Translations under genes and position numbers: made by a program | Notes under the pieces: model-generated | The model's input: the letters and a program-made list of their open reading frames with translations, nothing else | Told to the model about the DNA's origin: nothing | Databases searched by the model: none | DNA from: an uncultured Clostridia bacterium | GTDB lineage: Bacteria; Bacillota; Clostridia; Christensenellales; Aristaeellaceae | Reading direction: 5' to 3' | Length of the DNA stretch: 64,000 bases | NCBI GenBank assembly: GCA_947166385.1 | Contig: CAMVEB010000017.1 | Coordinates: 4,853 to 68,852 of the forward strand | Part shown: one piece after another, positions 23,590 to 52,519 of the stretch | Position numbering within the stretch: position 1 is the stretch's first letter | Layout of the letters: the number at the start of each line of letters is the position of its first letter

Positions 23590-23613
23590 GCGCAAATCCT
23601 CCTCAAACAAATC

Positions 23614-23696
23614 AAAAAACAGGTGAATGTGCCGTCCTGCCTGACCTCATTGCCTGTCCGCGAAGGATTTTATCATGAATGATTCTTTCTTGTCAA
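23614..23696 (-). promoter_or_regulatory. Promoter plus ANTAR-like hairpin/terminator leader of the glmS operon
   Basis: TTGACA (23691-96), 18 nt, TAAAAT (23667-72); GGC-AATGAG-GTC (23643-54) overlapping an imperfect terminator ACAGG..AATG...CATT..CCTGT-TTTTT. Confidence 0.7.
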
Positions 23697-23731
23697 TACA
23701 TTATAATACAACAATACATTCTGAAGACAAC

Positions 23732-23774: not shown

Positions 23775-25481
23775 TCAGTCGGATTGCAGTGCGTCGTACC
23801 CTTCCTCTCCTGTACGGACGCGTACCACATTCTCCACATCGGTAATAAAAATCTTGCCGTCTCCGATATGTCCCGTATGCAGGACATTCCTGGCCGTCTC
23901 GATCACCTCGCACACCGGCACCTTGCTCACCACGATATCCACCTGCACTTTCGGCAGCAGCGTCACTTCCACCGGTGTGCCGCGGTAGTACTCGGGCTTT
24001 CCTTTCTGTGCACCGTATCCCATGACGTTGGTAACAGTCATACCGGTAATTCCGATCCGGTTCATCGCTGTCTTCAGGCTCTCCAGACTGGCCGGACGAC
24101 AGATGATCTGAACCCGGGTATACACCGGTTCATCCGGCGCCTTCTCCTTCGCTTTCCGGACTGGTGTTTCCGCTGCGGCCGCAGCCGGAGCAGCTGTCGG
24201 AATAACCTCCCCGCCGCCGACGCTTTCTTCCGGAAGCATCGCGATTCCGGCGTACGCTGTCGGAAGTCCGTGTTCGCTGCGGTCCAGACCCATCACTTCA
24301 TCCGCGGAATCAGCCCGCAGACCGATTGCCTTTTTGATCAGCAGGAATACGACCGTAATAATCACTGCCGTCCAGGCGATCACCGTCAGCACCCCGAGGC
24401 ACTGAACTCCCAGGAATTTGAATCCGCCGCCGTAGAAAACACCTTTCATCGTGGTTTGTCCGGTAGCAAAGAAACCGGTCAGGATCGTGCCCAGCGCGCC
24501 GCATACACCGTGAACGGAAATTGCGCCGACCGGATCGTCGATTTTCACCACCCTGTCGAAAAAGCTCACAGCCAGCACCACGGCAAACCCGCAGACCACA
24601 CCGATCACGGCTGCTCCGAAGGGATCCACAGCGTCGCATCCCGCTGTGATGCCCACCAGCCCCGCCAGCGCTGCGTTGAAGGTCATGGAAACATCCGGCT
24701 TGCCGTACCTGATCCAGGTAAAGAGCATGGTGACCAGCGTCGCCAGGGCCGCCGACAGGTTCGTATTGAAGAACACCAGGCTGGCGGAGCCGATCAGCTC
24801 GTCGCTGTCCATCCCCACGGTGGAAGCGCCGTTGAAGCCGAACCAGCAGAACCAGAGGATGAATACCCCCAGCGCGGCAATGGACAGGTTGTGTCCCAGG
24901 ATGGCCCGGGGCTTTCCGTCCTTTCCGTATTTACCGATCCGGGGCCCCAGGATCTTCGCTCCGACCAGGGCGCAAACACCGCCGACCATGTGTACCGCCG
25001 TGGATCCGGCAAAATCATGGAATCCCATTTCCGCCAGCCAGCCGCCGCCCCAGATCCAGTGTCCGCTGACCGGATAAATAAACAGGGAAATCGCCGCGGA
25101 ATAGATGCAGTATGCTGAGAATTTGGTTCGCTCCGCCATCGATCCGGATACAATCGTTGCCGACGTCGCACAGAAAACCGTCTGGAAAATGGCAAACGCC
25201 CACAGCGGAACCCCCGCTGGCAGCACGCTTTCGTATTCCTTCATGATGAAAGGATCAATCCATCCGAAGACCGCCGTGCCTGTCCCGAACATAATCCCGA
25301 ATCCGAACAACCAGTACAGCGGGGTGCCGATGCAGAAATCCATCAGGTTCTTCATCAGGATATTACCGGTATTCTTGGCCCGGGTAAATCCGGCTTCGCA
25401 CATGGCAAACCCGGCCTGCATGAAGAAAACCAGCGCTGCGCCCAGCAGCACCCAGATTGTGTTCGCGGGAGAGTACATCAT
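23775..25481 (-). CDS. amtB: Ammonium transporter fused to a C-terminal PII (GlnK-like) domain
   Basis: Amt motifs 'FMQAGFAM', 'DFAGSTAVH', 'LWFCWFGFN', 'DDPVGAISVHG'; Ala/Pro linker; PII 'GITGMTV', 'YYRG', 'TGHIGDGKIF', 'RVRTGE'. Confidence 0.93.
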   Translation of the reverse strand: MMYSPANTIWVLLGAALVFFMQAGFAMCEAGFTRAKNTGNILMKNLMDFCIGTPLYWLFGFGIMFGTGTAVFGWIDPFIMKEYESVLPAGVPLWAFAIFQTVFCATSATIVSGSMAERTKFSAYCIYSAAISLFIYPVSGHWIWGGGWLAEMGFHDFAGSTAVHMVGGVCALVGAKILGPRIGKYGKDGKPRAILGHNLSIAALGVFILWFCWFGFNGASTVGMDSDELIGSASLVFFNTNLSAALATLVTMLFTWIRYGKPDVSMTFNAALAGLVGITAGCDAVDPFGAAVIGVVCGFAVVLAVSFFDRVVKIDDPVGAISVHGVCGALGTILTGFFATGQTTMKGVFYGGGFKFLGVQCLGVLTVIAWTAVIITVVFLLIKKAIGLRADSADEVMGLDRSEHGLPTAYAGIAMLPEESVGGGEVIPTAAPAAAAAETPVRKAKEKAPDEPVYTRVQIICRPASLESLKTAMNRIGITGMTVTNVMGYGAQKGKPEYYRGTPVEVTLLPKVQVDIVVSKVPVCEVIETARNVLHTGHIGDGKIFITDVENVVRVRTGEEGYDALQSD

Positions 25482-25514
25482 GATCCTCACTTCCGTTTCA
25501 GGTTATTTCCAACG

Positions 25515-25596
25515 AAAAAAGGCGCCGGGTGCTTCCACGCACCCTTGCGCCTTGTTGGATGGTCGTTATTGTATACAGTATCCATCTTCCTGTCAA
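25515..25596 (-). promoter_or_regulatory. Promoter plus ANTAR-like hairpin/terminator leader of amtB-PII
   Basis: TTGACA (25591-96), 17 nt, TACAAT (25568-73); GCGC-AAGGGT-GCGT (25537-50) overlapping terminator GGCGC..GGGTGC-GTGGAA-GCACCC.GCGCC-TTTTTT. Confidence 0.8.
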
Positions 25597-25643: not shown

Positions 25644-27050
25644 TCAGCGCCAGGAGCAAAGGAACCGGTGTGCTTCCCGCGCGGCCGCCTGTCCGTCCGC
25701 CAGCGCACGAACCACCAGGCTCTGCCCTGTCCGCATGTCTCCGGCGCTGAACAGTTTTCCGCCCAGGCAGTGGGATCCGTCCTCCGGCATCAGCCTTCCC
25801 CTGGGATCCGTCGCCAGTCCGAATTGCTTCGGGATCTTTTCCTCGCAGCCTGTGAATCCGGCTGCGATCAGCATCAGTTCGCACGGCAGGATTTCTTCCG
25901 ATCCCGGCACAGGTTCCATCTTCCCTGCCGGTGTTCTCCGCAGTTTCACGATTTCCGCACCGGTCATCTTATTCTGGTCGTCCGTCAGAATCCGCTTGAC
26001 CGTCGTCTCGTAAACCCGCGGATCGCTGCCCTGCACAGCCACGGCCTCCGTCTGGCCGTAGTCCGTCCGCAGCGTCCTCGGCCACTCCGGCCAGGGATTG
26101 CCGGATGTCCGGATGGCCGGGGGAGCCGGCATCATCTCCAGCTGGGTCACGGAGGCGCACCCCTGGCGCAGCACGGTACCCACGCAGTCGTTTCCCGTAT
26201 CCCCGCCGCCGACGACAATCACATGCCTGCCCTCCGCGAACCGGCAGTTCTCGCCCCGCAGCAGCGCTTTCGTGGTCTTGGTCAGATAGTCCACCGCGAA
26301 GCAGATGCCTTCCGCATCCATGTGTTCAGCGTTCAGCGTCCTGGGTTTTCTGGACCCGCCGCACAGTATCACGGCATCATAAGCCTCCAGTTCTTCCGGG
26401 TCCGCTTCCCGTCCGGTCCGGAAAACCACACCTTCCTCCTCCATCAGCCGGATTCGCCTTTCCACAATGCCCTTCGGCAGCTTCATGTTCGGAATCCCGT
26501 ACATCAGTAGCCCGCCGGGCCGGTCTGCCCGTTCAAACACAGTCACCGCGTGTCCCATTCGGTTCAGCAGATCCGCCGCCGCCAGTCCCGCCGGGCCGCT
26601 GCCGATGACAGCCGCCTGTTTTCCGGTTCGCACAGTGGGAACCCGCCGCCTGATCCAGCCCTTCTCGAATCCTTTTTCAATCAGATACAGCTCGTTGTCC
26701 CGGTTCGTCACACCGTCGTCCGCCAGGTTGCAGGCTTTTTCGCACAGAGCCGGGCAAACCCGTCCCGTGAATTCCGGAAAAGGCGCTGTTTCCAGCAGGC
26801 GTTCCAGCGCTTCCTTTTCCAGTCCCCGGTACAGCAGGTCGTTCCATTCCGGAATCAGGTTGTGCAGCGGGCATCCAAAGGCTGACTGGCAGAACGGAAC
26901 CCCGCAGTTCATGCAGCGCGAAGCCTGACAGGCCCGCTCTTCCGCTCCCTGTGGAATATGCAGGTCTTCATAGTCGGAAAGCCTCTCCCGGGCGTCCCGG
27001 AACAGGTTCTCCTTCCGGGCATACTCCAGAAAACCGGTTGCTTTGCCCAT
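25644..27050 (-). CDS. gltD: Glutamate synthase small (NAD(P)H) subunit
   Basis: 'MGKATGFLEY', 'RCMNCGVPFC', 'FPEFTGRVCPALCE', 'GSGPAGLAAA', 'GGGDTGNDC', 'AGDMRTGQSLVV'. Confidence 0.95.
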   Translation of the reverse strand: MGKATGFLEYARKENLFRDARERLSDYEDLHIPQGAEERACQASRCMNCGVPFCQSAFGCPLHNLIPEWNDLLYRGLEKEALERLLETAPFPEFTGRVCPALCEKACNLADDGVTNRDNELYLIEKGFEKGWIRRRVPTVRTGKQAAVIGSGPAGLAAADLLNRMGHAVTVFERADRPGGLLMYGIPNMKLPKGIVERRIRLMEEEGVVFRTGREADPEELEAYDAVILCGGSRKPRTLNAEHMDAEGICFAVDYLTKTTKALLRGENCRFAEGRHVIVVGGGDTGNDCVGTVLRQGCASVTQLEMMPAPPAIRTSGNPWPEWPRTLRTDYGQTEAVAVQGSDPRVYETTVKRILTDDQNKMTGAEIVKLRRTPAGKMEPVPGSEEILPCELMLIAAGFTGCEEKIPKQFGLATDPRGRLMPEDGSHCLGGKLFSAGDMRTGQSLVVRALADGQAAAREAHRFLCSWR

Positions 27051-27053
27051 TGC

Positions 27054-30000
27054 TCAAGCCCCCTTCATATAGGCCAGGTATTCATCGGAAATAACAGCCC
27101 GGAATTTTGGCAGATATTCCCGGAACGACGCCAGGATTTCCGCGGCCTTTCGGGATCCCGTCGCTTTCTCGTGCATGGTCAGCAGGCGTTCCAGTTCCCC
27201 GGCTTCCTCCGGCGCCACCGGATACATCCGGACATGTCCGGAATTCAGGTGATCCTTCAGTCTGTCGTTTTCATCCAGCACCCAGGCAATCCCGCCGCTC
27301 ATGCCGGCTGCAAAGTTGTCCCCCGCAGGGCCCAGGATAGCCACCCGGCCGCCGGTCATATACTCGCATCCGTGATCCCCGACGCCTTCCGCCACGGCCC
27401 ACGCGCCCGAATTCCTCACAGCGAACCGTTCTCCGGCCATACCGGCAACAAAGGCATATCCGCCGGTTGCTCCGTACAGGGCCACATTGCCGATCAGCGT
27501 ATCCTCCTGCCGCCAGATACTGTCCGCCGGCGGACAGACCGCCAGTGTTCCGCCGGATAATCCCTTGCCCAGGTAATCGTTTGCCACGCCGAACAGCGTG
27601 ATTGTCTGTCCTGCCGGCAGGAAAGCGCCGAAGGACTGACCGCCGCACCCCAGCGCCTGGATGTTTCTTTCCCCTTTGAGCATCGTTCCGAAGGCCCGGT
27701 CCGTTGTCATCAGGTGCACATGGTTCTGGAAAAGCCGCGCATCCGTCCGCTCCGCCAGATGGAAATCATGCTTCGCTTCCGGGCGGAAGTATGTATTCCG
27801 CGCAAAACCGATCAGGTCGCTCAGATCCATTCTGGCATCTGTTTTCATTTTCAGCAGGTCGCTGCGTCCCACCAGCTCGTTCACCGTGCGCGCGCCCAGC
27901 TTTGCCATGATCTCCCGCAGCTGCTCCGCGATAAACAGCATGAACCGTTCCACATACTCCGGTTTCCCGGCAAACTTCTTCCGCAGTTCCGGGTTCTGTG
28001 TGGCGATGCCAAAGGGGCAGGTTCCCAGGTGGCATACCCGCATCATCCGGCACCCCATGGTGACCAGCGGTGCCGTAGCAAACCCAAACTCTTCCGCCCC
28101 CAGCAGCAGCGCCACCGCCACATCATGGCCGGTCATCAGCTTTCCGTCCGTCTCCAGCGTCACCGTCTGCCGCAGCCGGTTCCGGCACAGCACCTGGTGA
28201 GCCTCCGCCAGGCCGATCTCCCACGGCAGTCCCGCATGGTGCACGCTGCTCAGCGGCACCGCGCCGGTCCCGCCTTCCCCGCCAGAGATCAGGATCCCGC
28301 CCGCGCCGGCCTTGGCCACGCCGCTGGCGATTGTTCCCACGCCGGTAGAAGAAACCAGTTTGACGGTAATCTTTGCGTTTTCATTGGCGCATTGCAGGTC
28401 GTAAATCAGTTCCGCCAGATCCTCAATCGAGTAGATATCGTGGTGAGGAGGCGGAGAAATCAGCGAGATTCCCGGTGTGGAGCAGCGGGTTCTCGCCACG
28501 CTGTCCGTTACCTTGGCCCCAGGCAGGTGTCCGCCCTCTCCCGGCTTTGCTCCCTGGGCCATCTTAATCTGAATCTCCTTTGCACTCAGCAGGTATTCCC
28601 GCGTCACGCCGAACCGGCCGGAGGCCACCTGCTTGATCGCGGAATTCAGGTCCGTCCCGAACCGTTCAGGCAGTTCCCCGCCTTCTCCGCTGTTGGATTT
28701 CCCGCCCAGGTGGTTCATCGCCCGGGCCATGCATTCGTGCGCCTCCTGCGATATCGAGCCATAGCTCATGGCGCCGGTCCGGAAGCGCTTTACAATGGAT
28801 TCCGCGCTCTCTACTTCTTCCAGCGGCACTTCCCGGCAGGCTTCAAACCGGAATTCCAGCATCGAGCGGATCGTCCGCGGCCCGTCGTTTTCCACCTGCG
28901 CGGCATACCGGTCAAACAGTTCCCGGCTGTCGGTCATCACCGCCTGCTGCAGCAGATGAATCGTCTCCGGGGAATACAGGTGTTCTTCCGCCTGCGGCCC
29001 GGTCCGCAGCCGGTGTATACCGATCGCCGGCAGACCTTTCCCGTCCTCGCCGAACGCTTCTGCGTGATGGAATCGGCTGTCCGCCTCCACCCTGTCCAGA
29101 TCCGTCCCCCCCAGGGTGCACGGGGTGTTTGTGAAGTATTTTTCAACAAATGGCCTGTCCAGTCCCACGGTTTCAAACAGTTGCGCGCTCTGGTAAGCCT
29201 GCAGGGTGGAAACGCCCATCTTGGATGCGATCTTCAGCACCCCGGCCGTCAGTGCCCGATCATAGTTTCGCAGGGCGGTCTCCGGCTCCGTCGTAATTGC
29301 GCCGTTCTTGCACAGATTCAGGATCCAGGCGTGCGCCAGGTAGGGATTCACCGCCCGCGCGCCGAATGCCGTCAGCAGCGCCAGATGATGAACATCCCGC
29401 GGTTCTCCGCTCTCCAGCACCACGGAAACAGCCGTTCTTTTCTTGATCCGGATCAGGTGCTGCTCCAGCGCGGACACCGCCAGCAGCGACGGAATCGCCA
29501 GGTGCTCCGCGTCCACACCCCGGTCGGAAAGGATCAGGATGTTGATCCTGTCCCGGCAGGCCTGATCGCAGGCCGCAAACAGGGACTCCAGCGCGTCCCG
29601 GAGATTCCCGTCTGTCGGATACAGAATGGAAACCGTGCGCACGGCAAACGCCGGATGCCGGATCTCCCGGATTCTCCGGAATTCTTCCTCTGTCAGGACC
29701 GGGGAAGGCAGTTCCAGCACCGTACAGTTCTCCGGTTCATGGGACAGCAGGTTCCCGTCGTCCCCGATATAGATGGAACAGTCTGTTTTGATTTCTTCCC
29801 GCAGTGCGTCGATCGGGGGGTTTGTCACCTGCGCGAACCGCTGTTTGAAGTAGTCAAACAGCGGGGGATGCGTCTTCGACAGCGCCGCCAGGGGTTCATC
29901 CGCCCCCATGGATACGATGGGTTCCGTCCCGTTTTCCGCCATCGGCCGCAGGATGTCCTGTACGTCTTCCCATGTATAGTGGAAAGCCTTGGCCAGCCGT

Positions 30001-31370
30001 TTCATGCGGTTTTCTACGGCGGTTTCCGTTTCTTTCTCCGCCTTCGGCAGATCCTCCAGTCGGATCACGTTCCGTGTCCATTCTCCGTAGGGATACGCCT
30101 GGGCATAGCGGGTCTTGACCTCGCTGCTCTCGGTCAGCCTGCCGCTTTCCAGATCCGCTTCCAGCACATCCCCGGCCTTCAGTTTCCACCGGCGCACTAT
30201 GTGCGCGTTTTCCTCAAACAGCACCCCCGCTTCCGAGGAAAGGATCAGCCGGTGGTCATCCGTCAGTGCGCAGCGCAGCGGACGCAGGCCGTTCCGGTCC
30301 AGGGAAGCGCATATTTTTTCCCCGTCGGTGTAAAGCACCGCCGCCGGTCCGTCCCACGGTTCCATCATCGTGGCATAGTAGCGGTAAAGATCCCGCCAGG
30401 CCGTTTCTCTTTCCACCCCCTGCCAGGGTTCCGGCATCAGGATCATCCCGGCCAGGGACAGGGGGATCCCGTTCATCGTCAGGAATTCCAGCGCGTTATC
30501 CAGCATCTGGCTGTCGCTTCCGCCTTCCGCGACCACCGGAAGCACCCGCTGCATCTCCTTTCCCATCACGGCGGAGCGCATGGTTTCCTCCCGGGCTTTC
30601 ATCCGGTCATGATTGCCCCGGATGGTGTTGATTTCCCCGTTGTGCAGCAGCATCCGATGCGGATGTGCCTTGCTCCAGGATGGAAAGGTATTCGTGGAAA
30701 ACCGGGAATGGACCATCGCCATCCGGCTCGTGTACCGGGCGTCCTGCAGGTCGTCATAGAAAGACCGCAGCTGGTTGACCAGCATCATTCCCTTGTAAAC
30801 CACTGTCCGGCTGGAAAGGGAGCAGATGTAGGTATCCGTGTCCTGTTTTTCAAAAACGCGCCGCAGGATATACAGCTGCCTGTCAAAATCCTGTCCGGCT
30901 TTTGTTTCCCCGGGACGCCTCAGAAAGCACTGGCGGATCCGCGGCATCGTGCTGCGTGCGCCGGGGCCCAGCTGCGCCGGATGGCACGGAACCACCCGCC
31001 AGCCCAGCACCGGAATCCGTTCCGCTTTCGCCACCTGCTCAAAGATCCTGCAGGCGTTCTCCGCGGCTACCTCGTCCTCCGGCAAAAAAAACATCCCCAC
31101 GCCGTAATCTCCCGGCCGGCCCAGGGAAATTCCCTCCTCCTGGGCCCACGCGGAAAAAAGGCTGTGGGGCAGTTCCGTCAGAATCCCGACCCCGTCGCCG
31201 GTGGTTCCCTGCGCGTCGCTTCCGGCCCGGTGGGCCAGGCGCTCCACGATGGAAAGCGCCTGGTCCACGGTCCGGTGCGTGGCGCGGCCGTTCAGGTCCG
31301 CCACTGCGCCGACACCGCAGTTTTCATGTTCCAGTTCTTCCTGGTAAAGGGGATATTGTCGGTCCCGCAT
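27054..31370 (-). CDS. gltB: Glutamate synthase large subunit
   Basis: 'ENCGVGAV', 'HSRFSTNTFPSW', 'HNGEINT', 'MEPWDGP', 'IKQVASGRFGV', 'QGAKPGEGGHLPG', 'CRMMRVCHLGTCPFG', GXGXG domain. Confidence 0.97.
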   Translation of the reverse strand: MRDRQYPLYQEELEHENCGVGAVADLNGRATHRTVDQALSIVERLAHRAGSDAQGTTGDGVGILTELPHSLFSAWAQEEGISLGRPGDYGVGMFFLPEDEVAAENACRIFEQVAKAERIPVLGWRVVPCHPAQLGPGARSTMPRIRQCFLRRPGETKAGQDFDRQLYILRRVFEKQDTDTYICSLSSRTVVYKGMMLVNQLRSFYDDLQDARYTSRMAMVHSRFSTNTFPSWSKAHPHRMLLHNGEINTIRGNHDRMKAREETMRSAVMGKEMQRVLPVVAEGGSDSQMLDNALEFLTMNGIPLSLAGMILMPEPWQGVERETAWRDLYRYYATMMEPWDGPAAVLYTDGEKICASLDRNGLRPLRCALTDDHRLILSSEAGVLFEENAHIVRRWKLKAGDVLEADLESGRLTESSEVKTRYAQAYPYGEWTRNVIRLEDLPKAEKETETAVENRMKRLAKAFHYTWEDVQDILRPMAENGTEPIVSMGADEPLAALSKTHPPLFDYFKQRFAQVTNPPIDALREEIKTDCSIYIGDDGNLLSHEPENCTVLELPSPVLTEEEFRRIREIRHPAFAVRTVSILYPTDGNLRDALESLFAACDQACRDRINILILSDRGVDAEHLAIPSLLAVSALEQHLIRIKKRTAVSVVLESGEPRDVHHLALLTAFGARAVNPYLAHAWILNLCKNGAITTEPETALRNYDRALTAGVLKIASKMGVSTLQAYQSAQLFETVGLDRPFVEKYFTNTPCTLGGTDLDRVEADSRFHHAEAFGEDGKGLPAIGIHRLRTGPQAEEHLYSPETIHLLQQAVMTDSRELFDRYAAQVENDGPRTIRSMLEFRFEACREVPLEEVESAESIVKRFRTGAMSYGSISQEAHECMARAMNHLGGKSNSGEGGELPERFGTDLNSAIKQVASGRFGVTREYLLSAKEIQIKMAQGAKPGEGGHLPGAKVTDSVARTRCSTPGISLISPPPHHDIYSIEDLAELIYDLQCANENAKITVKLVSSTGVGTIASGVAKAGAGGILISGGEGGTGAVPLSSVHHAGLPWEIGLAEAHQVLCRNRLRQTVTLETDGKLMTGHDVAVALLLGAEEFGFATAPLVTMGCRMMRVCHLGTCPFGIATQNPELRKKFAGKPEYVERFMLFIAEQLREIMAKLGARTVNELVGRSDLLKMKTDARMDLSDLIGFARNTYFRPEAKHDFHLAERTDARLFQNHVHLMTTDRAFGTMLKGERNIQALGCGGQSFGAFLPAGQTITLFGVANDYLGKGLSGGTLAVCPPADSIWRQEDTLIGNVALYGATGGYAFVAGMAGERFAVRNSGAWAVAEGVGDHGCEYMTGGRVAILGPAGDNFAAGMSGGIAWVLDENDRLKDHLNSGHVRMYPVAPEEAGELERLLTMHEKATGSRKAAEILASFREYLPKFRAVISDEYLAYMKGA

Positions 31371-31383
31371 GTTCCATCCTCCC

Positions 31384-31920
31384 CTATCGGTTCTTTTGCT
31401 TTTCCTCTTGGATGATGCTGGCAGCGTACTCAGCCATTTTGATGCTGTGGTCCATCGCCTGTTTCTGAAGCAGGTGATGCGCCTCCGGTTCTGTAAGATG
31501 CAGCTGTTTCATCAGGATTTCCTTGGCCTGCTCCACCAGTTCCTTCTCCGCGCCGGCCCGACGGGGCATCTGCCGCCGGTGAAGCTGGTTCAGCATTTCA
31601 ATCGCCCCGGCGATGGTCTGTCCCGTAGTCGGAACCGGCAGCCGGAAAACTTCCGGCGATTCGCAGTTCTCCAGGATGGCCGGTTTGGCGATCCAGAGGA
31701 TCTGTACCCGTTCGCCGTAGTCCCAGACCAGCTCCTCCGGCTTGCAGTCAGGGATCTGTCCCAGATAGATCAGGATGCTGTCCTCGCTTTCAGACAGTGC
31801 TCTCCTCAGGCTGCTTCCCGATGTACAGCAGCGGTATACGGAATAACCGGAGGAAGCAAGCAGCCGGGCTATCTGATCGCGGGTCGTTTCCGATATGCCG
31901 GCGATGATCATTCGCGCCAC
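31384..31920 (-). CDS. ANTAR-domain antitermination regulator with degenerate receiver domain (NitR-like)
   Basis: C-terminal 'LVEQAKEILMKQLHLTEPEAHHLLQKQAMDHSIKMAEYAASII' matches ANTAR (IxxAKxxLMxxxxxxExxAxxxLxxxSM); position glnA-[this gene]-gltB-gltD as for clostridial nitR; GTG start with GGAGG RBS. Confidence 0.85.
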   Translation of the reverse strand: MARMIIAGISETTRDQIARLLASSGYSVYRCCTSGSSLRRALSESEDSILIYLGQIPDCKPEELVWDYGERVQILWIAKPAILENCESPEVFRLPVPTTGQTIAGAIEMLNQLHRRQMPRRAGAEKELVEQAKEILMKQLHLTEPEAHHLLQKQAMDHSIKMAEYAASIIQEEKQKNR

Positions 31921-31965
31921 TGGATCTTCCTCCTTTGATTCAGATTGGGCTCCCCTGATTCGTCA

Positions 31966-33297
31966 TCAGTACATCACGATATACCGTTCAATCTCCCAGC
32001 GGCTGACATGGGTGCGATACGCATCCCATTCCTTTTCCTTGCCTTCCACATACTGCCCCAGCACATGCTCGCCCAGTGCCTTGCAGATCACATCGTCTGC
32101 CTTCAGGCATTCCACCGCGTCCTTCAGGGTGCCGGGCAGGGAGCGGATGCCTTTCGCTTCCCGCGTTTCCGCGTCCATGGCAAAGATGTTTTCCGTAATC
32201 TCGTCCGGGGGCGTCAGTCCTTTCCGGATGCCGTCCAGTCCTGCTGCCAGGCACACTGCCATGTTCAGGTAGGGGTTGCAGCTGGGATCCGGGCACCGGA
32301 GTTCCACGCGCGTTCCCATCCCGCGGGCAGCGGGAATCCGGATCAGAGCGGACCGGTTGCTCGCGCTCCAGGCCAGGTAGCACGGCGCCTCATATCCGGG
32401 AACCAAGCGCTTGTAGCTGTTCACCAGCGGGTTGGTCACCGCCGCCATGCCGCGGATATGCTCCAGAATCCCGGCGATGAAGGAATATGCTTCCTTACTC
32501 AGTCCCCGGCTGTCAGCGGGATCGGCAAACACGTTCTTTCCGTCCTTGAACAGGCTCATGTTTGTGTGCATGCCGCTGCCGTTGATTCCGAATACAGGCT
32601 TCGGCATGAATGTCGCGTGCAGTCCATTCTTCTGGGCCAGGGTCTTGACCGCCAGCTTGAACGTCATGATATTGTCCGCCGCTGTCAGCGCGTCGGCATA
32701 TTTGAAGTCGATCTCATGCTGTCCTGCTGCCACTTCATGGTGGCTGGCCTCGATTTCGAATCCCATCTGTTCCAGCGCCAGGCAGATCTCACGCCGGGTG
32801 CTCTCGCCATGGTCCAGCGGCCCCAGGTCAAAGTATCCGGCTTCGTCGGATGTCGCGGTCGTGGGTTTTCCCTGCTCATCCGTCTGGAAGAGGAAGAATT
32901 CCATTTCCGGCCCGACATTGAAGGAATATCCCATGTCCGCCGCTTCCTGCAGTACCTTCTTCAGAACCCCGCGGGGATCTCCTGCGAAGGGCGTCCCATC
33001 CGGGTTGTAAACGTCGCAGATCAGCCGGGCCACTTTCCCGTGCTGCGGCCGCCAGGGCAGAATCGCGAAGGTATCCAGATCCGGCCGCAGGTACTGATCA
33101 CTCTCGTTGATGCGCACAAATCCTTCGATAGAGCTGCCGTCAATCATAATTTCATTGTTGACAGCCTTTTCGATCTGGCTCGCCGTGATTGCCACGTTCT
33201 TCAGCTGGCCGAAAATATCGGTAAACTGCATGCGGATAAACTCCACGTCGCCTTCCCGAACCATCCGGATAATGTCCTCTTTCGTGTACTTGCTCAT
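31966..33297 (-). CDS. glnA: Type I glutamine synthetase
   Basis: '[14 protein letters not shown]', 'DGSSIEGF', '[10 protein letters not shown]', '[15 protein letters not shown]', '[13 protein letters not shown]', 'ELRCPD'; start ATG 33297. Confidence 0.97.
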
Positions 33298-33345
33298 ACA
33301 TGAAACCCCCTTCAAACAATTCTGCCGGTTCCTGCGGCATAAATC

Positions 33346-33427
33346 AAAAACAGGCAAGTCCAGCCATGATCCATGGCTCCCTTGCCTTGTATGCGGGGAT
33401 CATATCACCCGTTTTTTTCGCTGTCAA
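33346..33427 (-). promoter_or_regulatory. Promoter plus ANTAR-like hairpin/terminator leader of the glnA operon
   Basis: TTGACA (33422-27), 17 nt, TATGAT (33399-404); GGC-AAGGGA-GCC (33375-86) overlapping terminator AGGCAAG..AGCCATG-GAT-CATGGCT..CTTGCCT-GTTTTT. Confidence 0.85.
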
Positions 33428-33491
33428 GCGTTTCTTCGCGTTTTGAATTGTTTTCCCTTTGTATTCACTGCGGCATCCTCCAGCTTGCTGC

Positions 33492-33571
33492 TTGACAAGC
33501 CCTGACCGGAATGATACCATACCTGCCAACAAGGCAAGGGTGTCCTGTGATGGGGATATCCTTCCTTTTTT
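33492..33571 (+). promoter_or_regulatory. Promoter plus ANTAR-like hairpin/terminator leader of asnB-guaA
   Basis: TTGACA 33492-97, 17 nt, TACCAT 33515-20; GGC-AAGGGT-GTC 33533-44 overlapping terminator stem 33536-45/33554-63 (plus AAGG/CCTT) and T-run to 33571. Confidence 0.8.
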
Positions 33572-33607
33572 GTTTCCTCCCCAATTCTGACTCAGGAGGC
33601 GATCCGT

Positions 33608-52419: not shown

Positions 52420-52503
52420 TTCCATATCCGATCCGCTTGTGATACGATGATGCCGCAAACTGGCAAGGGCGTCGGTGCACGGTTGGCATCGGCGTATTTT
52501 TTT
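52420..52503 (+). promoter_or_regulatory. Promoter plus ANTAR-like hairpin/terminator leader of purC
   Basis: TTCCAT 52420-25, 17 nt, TG-n-TACGAT 52443-48; ACTGGC-AAGGGC-GTCGGT 52459-76 overlapping terminator stem 52469-78/52486-95 and T7 at 52497-503. Confidence 0.75.
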
Positions 52504-52519
52504 GTGGGAGGCGGACAGA

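Follow-up and report, generated by a model that had tools for sequence, protein, structure and literature searches.

NitR (formerly GlnR) of Clostridium saccharobutylicum and C. acetobutylicum is an ANTAR-family antiterminator that induces the glutamine synthetase (GS) and glutamate synthase (GOGAT) genes on nitrogen limitation (PMC6316151, PMC4676874). This work concerns a NitR-like ANTAR antiterminator gene at positions 31384..31920 on the minus strand of a 64,000-nucleotide stretch of DNA, which we call the window, from contig CAMVEB010000017.1. Like nitR, the gene lies immediately after glnA and near the glutamate synthase genes. Unlike NitR, its host is an uncultured rumen Christensenellales-like bacterium, and the regulon seems wider here, with asnB, a glmS operon, purC, purF and gdhA among its members. 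We believe the protein is a NitR-type antiterminator that binds hexaloop leaders of nitrogen genes and takes its input by a non-covalent route and not by phosphorylation, and we put the probability of this at roughly 0.8.

ANTAR proteins with a pseudo-receiver have already been recognised as a class (PMC3369931; PMC4395418), and receivers that lack the aspartate are enriched among ANTAR proteins (PMC4395418). AmiR of Pseudomonas aeruginosa (PDB 1qo0) is built like the protein discussed here, with a pseudo-receiver, a long coiled-coil helix and an ANTAR domain. It is not phosphorylated and is controlled instead by AmiC, a sensor protein encoded next to it (PMC3369931). The comparison has its limits, since the structural identity is 16-17% and the conserved neighbour here is not an AmiC-like ligand-binding gene but a glutamine synthetase. 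EutV-EutW of Enterococcus faecalis (6wsh, 6ww6) and PdtaR/Rv1626 share the receiver plus ANTAR architecture and are the best structural matches, but they keep the phospho-Asp and have cognate kinases, and the Eut leaders carry two hairpins at a fixed spacing. GnfR of Geobacter sulfurreducens, which binds CAGGCAAGGGCGCC (PMC2995071), also acts by ANTAR antitermination of nitrogen genes (nifH, glnK and amtB). Its experimentally bound CAGGCAA(N)GGCGCC (PMC2995071) is the same GGC-AAGGGN-GCC hairpin sequence that we find in the leaders here. However, RNA binding by GnfR, a true response regulator, depends on phosphorylation by GnfK, whereas the protein here has neither the acceptor Asp nor a linked kinase. 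The sensor that controls NasT is NasS, which is not a kinase either. The two are co-transcribed in Paracoccus and Bradyrhizobium (PMC5424462), and NasT resembles the protein here in being a receiver-ANTAR nitrogen regulator with a co-transcribed partner. NasS, however, binds nitrate, and what the pair controls is nitrate assimilation. The neighbours of our ANTAR gene are glnA and gltB, and no AmiC- or NasS-like gene is adjacent to it. A further comparison is one of function only: Bacillus GlnR is under the control of GS, and its gene shares an operon with glnA (glnRA). TnrA of Bacillus subtilis is likewise controlled, by direct binding of feedback-inhibited GS (PMC6316151). Both are MerR-type DNA-binding proteins, unlike the ANTAR protein here.

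The open reading frame encodes 178 amino acids from a GTG start that has an AGGAGG box 8 nt upstream. Its C-terminal domain is easily recognised. Pfam places the ANTAR RNA-binding domain (PF03861) at residues 120-170 (31411..31563, minus strand) with 62.9 bits (E 2.3e-17) against a gathering cut-off of 27.3, and the domain aligns with the ANTAR domains of EutV, NasR and Rv1626. All of the 115 relatives used in this analysis have the match as well, and a genome-wide scan finds no second ANTAR protein in this genome. NCBIfam has no match for the whole protein. Residues 1-119 match no Pfam family, Response_reg included, even at E<=10, and a six-frame Response_reg scan of all 4.33 Mb of the genome, which finds 37 receivers scoring above the family cut-off, does not pick up this domain. 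A weak Response_reg match on their own sequence is present in 15 of the relatives, with a best E of 1.7e-4.

The predicted structure identifies what the family profile misses. AlphaFold2, given an alignment of the 115 relatives, returns a (beta-alpha)5 domain that leads into a long helix, at a predicted local distance difference test score (pLDDT) of 94.9; this supersedes a run with 17 close sequences only, which scored 68. The elements follow the receiver order: beta1 3-8, alpha1 11-23, beta2 28-32, alpha2 35-43, beta3 48-53, alpha3 61-71, beta4 72-78, alpha4 80-83 and beta5 91-95, after which an unbroken helix at 100-140 runs into the ANTAR helices. Foldseek against the PDB gives EutV (6ww6, 6wsh), Rv1626 (1s8n, 1sd5) and AmiR (1qo0) as the best matches, and the N-terminal domain matches single-domain receivers such as CheY with a target-normalised TM-score of ~0.78 and a root-mean-square deviation of 2.5 Å. 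When the family profile of this domain is aligned by hhalign with a profile built from 17 receivers that this genome encodes, the probability is 94.8% (E 4.8e-8) over 111 columns. On the strength of the model and these alignments the N-terminal domain is a receiver by fold, though Response_reg misses it. AlphaFold2, Foldseek and hhalign put this pseudo-receiver, an aspartate-less receiver domain, together with the start of its long alpha5 helix at residues 1-118 (31567..31920, minus strand). The protein is probably a dimer.

The same hhalign alignment bears on the question of phosphorylation. It places the acidic pair after beta1 at G8-I9, the Thr/Ser of beta4 at A78 and the Lys-Pro of beta5 at V96-P97. 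The phospho-acceptor Asp of beta3 falls on Y52, or on L53 when the conserved Pro of the beta3-alpha3 loop is taken as the anchor; L53 is the last beta3 residue in the AlphaFold2 model. All five catalytic residues are thus replaced, and the structural Pro97 alone is retained. The relatives agree. In none of the 115, which are diverse, does either of the two candidate acceptor columns hold Asp or Glu, and none has Lys before Pro97, while Pro97 itself is present in all of them. Ser or Thr occupies the beta4 position in only 10, and the first acidic position is Phe in 88. Among aspartate-less receivers the reported averages are 66% for retention of the first acidic residue and 70% for the Lys (PMC4395418), so by sequence comparison the loss of pocket residues is more complete here than is typical of such domains. 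There is no HATPase_c match on the contig of the window, which is longer than the window, the 38 matches of the genome all being on other contigs, and no kinase is linked to the ANTAR gene in the ~100 neighbourhoods of relatives that we examined. Judged from the sequence, the pseudo-receiver is not phosphorylatable at the canonical site. A receiver without phosphorylation chemistry and with no kinase nearby must get its input another way. Set against the described classes, the protein departs from a canonical response regulator in its Asp, acidic pair, Thr/Ser, Lys and adjacent kinase, and by sequence and model it falls with the AmiR-type pseudo-receiver ANTAR proteins.

The family has conserved polar positions of its own. 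These are Asp58 (94%, 108/115), Ser/Thr34 (92%, 106/115), Cys32 (78%), Lys/Arg55 (77%) and Arg40 (71%), with Lys/Arg55 and Asp58 in a loop beside the former active site. Conservation of this kind where the catalytic residues are gone argues for purifying selection for something other than phosphotransfer. One could still suppose that a kinase encoded elsewhere modifies the protein covalently, at a non-canonical site such as Asp58 or Ser/Thr34. Those two positions are well enough conserved for it, aspartate-less receivers are enriched beside Ser/Thr kinase and phosphatase modules (PMC4395418), and the genome has HATPase_c matches on other contigs. But acyl-phosphate chemistry would lack its support, since the Mg-binding acidic pair, the Thr and the Lys are all absent; position 34 is where receivers usually have their helix N-cap, and the neighbourhoods hold no linked kinase. 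We find this explanation highly improbable. Asp58 as a shifted acceptor was also considered and rejected as the default reading, since the acidic pair, the Thr and the Lys are all missing.

The same residues can be used to argue for a one-component sensor, in which the degenerate pocket would bind a small metabolite such as glutamine, 2-oxoglutarate or something similar. Asp58, Lys/Arg55, Arg40 and Cys32 are conserved without being needed by the fold, and several of them are in loops at the side of the former active site. However, we found no documented receiver-fold domain that directly senses an amino acid, and AmiR, which is also a pseudo-receiver ANTAR protein, relies on its partner protein AmiC (PMC3369931). 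We consider direct binding of a metabolite unlikely.

It is important to realize that the loss is not peculiar to this genome. Metagenomes are rich in the close family (65-100% identity), and when 1.84 billion representatives are searched with a profile, 382 clusters match at E<=1e-10, most of them 170-185 residues long and aligned end to end. Full-length matches occur in 152 of 301 sampled Clostridia genomes. ANTAR relatives are thus present in about half of the sampled genomes of the class, including abundant rumen and gut lineages. By these sequence comparisons the loss of the catalytic residues is a family trait and not a local oddity. Lower-scoring ANTAR proteins that are linked to glnA form a graded series in which some keep Asn or Asp at the acceptor position, Thr, and Lys-Pro, and none of them keeps the acidic pair of beta1. 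Their sequences suggest a stepwise loss of the phosphorylation chemistry within one orthologous lineage. As a separate matter, the Christensenellales subfamily conserves several cysteines in the pseudo-receiver (C31, C32, C59 and C86); 17 close relatives show no change at C32 or C59, and C86 is kept for the most part.

Most of what an earlier note on this DNA had claimed about the protein stands. The note had described the open reading frame correctly, and the strings that it gave as replacements for the catalytic strands are present: IIAGIS at residues 5-10, SILIYLG at 48-54, ILWIA at 74-78 and LPVP at 94-97. Its view that the receiver alpha/beta pattern survives is supported by the model and the Foldseek matches, and its view that the catalytic positions are replaced agrees with the hhalign mapping and the 115 relatives. 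The alignment with the receivers of this genome leaves no intact phospho-acceptor Asp. The note was also right that the window has no histidine kinase and, given the catalytic loss and the lack of a kinase nearby, that the input must come by a route other than phosphorylation. Two points qualify it. The pseudo-receiver is real but less unusual than was assumed, because the loss is family-wide and both the class and the glnA-nitR arrangement have already been described. The inputs that the note suggested (GS, PII, a small ligand or the abundance of the protein) are still candidates, and the nearly constant place of the gene behind glnA puts GS tentatively first among them.

The linkage to glnA is the most constant feature of the neighbourhood. 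glnA (31966..33297, minus strand) encodes a type I glutamine synthetase of 443 aa with Gln-synt_N and Gln-synt_C matches and is directly upstream of the ANTAR gene. The stop codon of glnA occupies 31966-31968, and with the start codon of the ANTAR gene beginning at 31920 a gap of 45 nt is left (31921..31965, minus strand), which contains the AGGAGG and no predicted promoter or terminator. On the other side gltB, the large subunit of glutamate synthase (27054..31370, minus strand), starts 13 nt after the ANTAR stop codon and is followed by gltD, the small subunit (25644..27050, minus strand). The order asnB (divergent), glnA, ANTAR, gltB, gltD is found in 43 loci from genome bins of rumen Clostridia and Christensenellales, in which the GlnA proteins are 90-96% identical and the ANTAR proteins 50-86%. 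Further away, 45 of 49 sampled Clostridia genomes have glnA immediately before the ANTAR gene. The 30 best loci include 29 from foreign genomes, every one of which shows it, and so do 16 of 20 loci with lower scores. In gut metagenomes, three distant relatives (~25-30% identical), two of which cluster with proteins named for Lachnospiraceae, all have the ANTAR gene ~40 nt after glnA, while their downstream genes differ. Between the glnA leader and gltB, a sequence scan of the minus strand finds nothing that resembles a promoter or a terminator, from which we infer that glnA, the ANTAR gene and gltBD are co-transcribed as one unit. The earlier note had likewise seen no terminator in the gap, and it had also identified the fusion of AmtB to a PII domain in this window, which Pfam matches confirm.

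The second line of evidence comes from the leaders. In the ANTAR hexaloop the first base is A and the fourth is G, and the minimal binding unit, or minimal ANTAR site, consists of one hexaloop (PMC3369931; PMC8934654). The glnA promoter and leader (33345..33427, minus strand) has a promoter of the form TTGACA-17-TGnTATGAT (11/12), the hairpin GGC[AAGGGA]GCC at 33386-33375 and a terminator at 33387-33352 followed by a U-run, and the motif is conserved in relatives. The asnB promoter and leader (33492..33580, plus strand) has GGC[AAGGGT]GTC at 33533-33544, and that of amtB-PII (25508..25596, minus strand) has GCGC[AAGGGT]GCGT at 25550-25537, each overlapping a terminator. The promoter and leader of the glmS operon (23612..23700, minus strand) has GGC[AATGAG]GTC at 23654-23643 with a terminator of -11.3 kcal/mol. 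The purC leader (52440..52505, plus strand) has ACTGGC[AAGGGC]GTCGGT, with the loop at 52465-52470, and a 10-bp terminator; it was read directly from the sequence and is below the promoter filter of our looser scan. Minimum-energy folds of the leaders are terminators at -21.8, -20.1, -31.8 and -20.0 kcal/mol (z -2.0 to -5.6), the first three values being those of glnA (z -2.8), asnB (z -2.8) and amtB-PII (z -5.6).

In the whole 4.33-Mb genome the strict motif ACAAGGC(GC)AAGGG occurs by a promoter and a terminator in the glnA, asnB and amtB-PII leaders only, where it stands a few nucleotides after strong sigma-70-type promoters. A looser scan, which asks for a promoter, a hexaloop hairpin and a terminator, brings in the glmS operon and four genes outside the window: gdhA (contig C20:44697, plus strand), a purF-like glutamine amidotransferase (C20:10625, minus strand), an 858-aa protein with a PPDK_N domain (C19:37335, minus strand) and an ilvB-like thiamine pyrophosphate (TPP) enzyme (C44:4371, minus strand). 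The common element is a hairpin of 3-6 bp with the hexaloop AAGGGN and a C-G closing pair, placed inside the 5' arm of the terminator. The stems vary among leaders and orthologues (GGC/GCC, GGC/GTC, GAC/GTC, AGC/GCT, GCGC/GYGY) and the pairing is kept. As in described ANTAR targets, the hexaloops, C[AAGGGN]G or [AATGAG], have A1 and G4 and overlap intrinsic terminators. A second, upstream P1 hairpin shows no conserved pairing in 40+ orthologous leaders, only inconsistent pairings of 2-4 bp for glnA, asnB and amtB. Only 12-17 nt separate the -10 box from the single hairpin, which begins ~5-10 nt from the predicted 5' end of the transcript. We make no claim of a dual-hairpin motif, as the P1 pairings are inconsistent in the leaders and their orthologues. 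Rfam at its gathering threshold has no match in the window.

Judged from these sequences, one ANTAR protein faces at least nine single-hexaloop leaders in this genome and seems to head a genome-wide nitrogen regulon. The pseudo-receiver ANTAR class and the clostridial glnA-nitR antiterminator were already known. What is added is a family in which every catalytic residue has been lost and the number of leaders that a single protein faces. The regulator appears to gate the entry of ammonium through GS, GOGAT, AmtB, asparagine synthetase and other glutamine-dependent enzymes.

The arrangement of the leaders is compatible with a simple scheme. In every leader some bases of the hairpin belong to the 5' arm of the terminator as well, so termination would be the default and protein binding would give read-through. 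A dimeric ANTAR protein would bind and stabilise the hexaloop hairpin, and the terminator could then not form. In the window the targets would be glnA-nitR-gltBD, asnB, amtB-PII, the glmS operon and purC; those elsewhere in the genome would include gdhA and purF. The ANTAR gene lies behind the glnA leader, so the protein would amplify its own synthesis. We infer the binding of RNA by this protein, the direction of regulation and the steps of termination and read-through from the anatomy of the leaders and from characterised ANTAR systems (PMC3369931, PMC8934654, PMC2995071).

Amplification of this kind raises the question of whether an input is needed at all. The pseudo-receiver might be an input-free dimerisation scaffold, with the abundance of the protein set by positive feedback and by some other controller of promoters or RNA stability. 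The position of the ANTAR gene downstream of the glnA leader terminator, where it has no predicted promoter of its own, is what this would require, and antisense RNA does contribute to regulation in the Clostridium system (PMC6316151). However, a positive loop alone cannot read nitrogen status, we identified no site for a nitrogen-responsive transcription factor, and polar residues with no structural role stay conserved in a family that spans the class, which argues for a binding surface. We think this quite unlikely.

Under the non-covalent scheme, nitrogen status would act on the pseudo-receiver through the binding of a sensor protein or a metabolite. glnA is the only neighbour kept across the class, so we favour GS as the partner. 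We propose, by analogy with Bacillus, that feedback-inhibited GS made from the same transcript binds the pseudo-receiver and switches off RNA binding, sequestering the ANTAR protein when nitrogen is plentiful. This choice of sensor is possible and we hold it only tentatively. If it is true, GS as the sensor would be an RNA-level counterpart of GS control of GlnR and TnrA, spread across roughly half of the Clostridia, and it would explain why the ANTAR gene stays by glnA while its other neighbours change. The lost phosphorylation chemistry, the polar loop residues and the co-encoding with glnA together reduce the question of the input to a short list of binding experiments.

The main rival to GS as the partner is PII. 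The same antiterminator could have the PII domain fused to AmtB as its sensor, with the pseudo-receiver held at the membrane at low 2-oxoglutarate and released to RNA at high 2-oxoglutarate with ATP. The AmtB ammonium transporter with its C-terminal PII domain (23775..25490, minus strand, Pfam matches) carries the only PII domain detected by a scan of this genome, which is 94.6% complete, and it is inside the same regulon. Several relatives have a PII gene and amtB immediately after the ANTAR gene. A PII match is present in all 29 of the sampled core-family genomes and in 141 of 151 genomes with a family match. On the other side, ten genomes with a glnA-linked ANTAR relative have no PII match at E<=1e-3, and one of these is closed and three are >=98% complete. 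All ten belong to distant subfamilies, so for the core family co-occurrence does not decide between PII and GS. It is also confounded with a general capacity for ammonium assimilation, and the conserved neighbour is glnA, not PII. We regard PII as possible but rather unlikely. Apart from this argument, the PII matches of many sampled Clostridia are inside open frames of ~570-630 aa, consistent with the same AmtB fusion.

Several points weigh against the explanation that we favour. Asp58 is nearly invariant and sits 5 residues past the canonical position, and it may be an unusual modification site. The leaders have one hexaloop hairpin each, versus two in the classical EutV model, and the glmS terminator is the weakest of the set (z -0.5). 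Membership in the NitR family is argued from gene order, domain content and class-wide distribution. The protein comes from an uncultured rumen bacterium and is known from its sequence and a model, and the contact between GS and the ANTAR protein is one that we propose by analogy.

The surroundings of the operon are worth describing. The ~22 kb at 14508-36761 of the window form an unusually dense cluster of genes linked to glutamine or ammonium, five of which are glutamine amidotransferases, in the order pheA, pyrG, purB, purA, an aminotransferase, glmS, amtB-PII, gltD, gltB, ANTAR, glnA, asnB and guaA. The divergent promoters of glnA and asnB (33298-33607) are ~65 bp apart, with -35 boxes at 33427 and 33492, and each has its own leader with hexaloop and terminator. 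The glnA terminator of some relatives comes close to being a palindrome and is scored on the opposite strand too.

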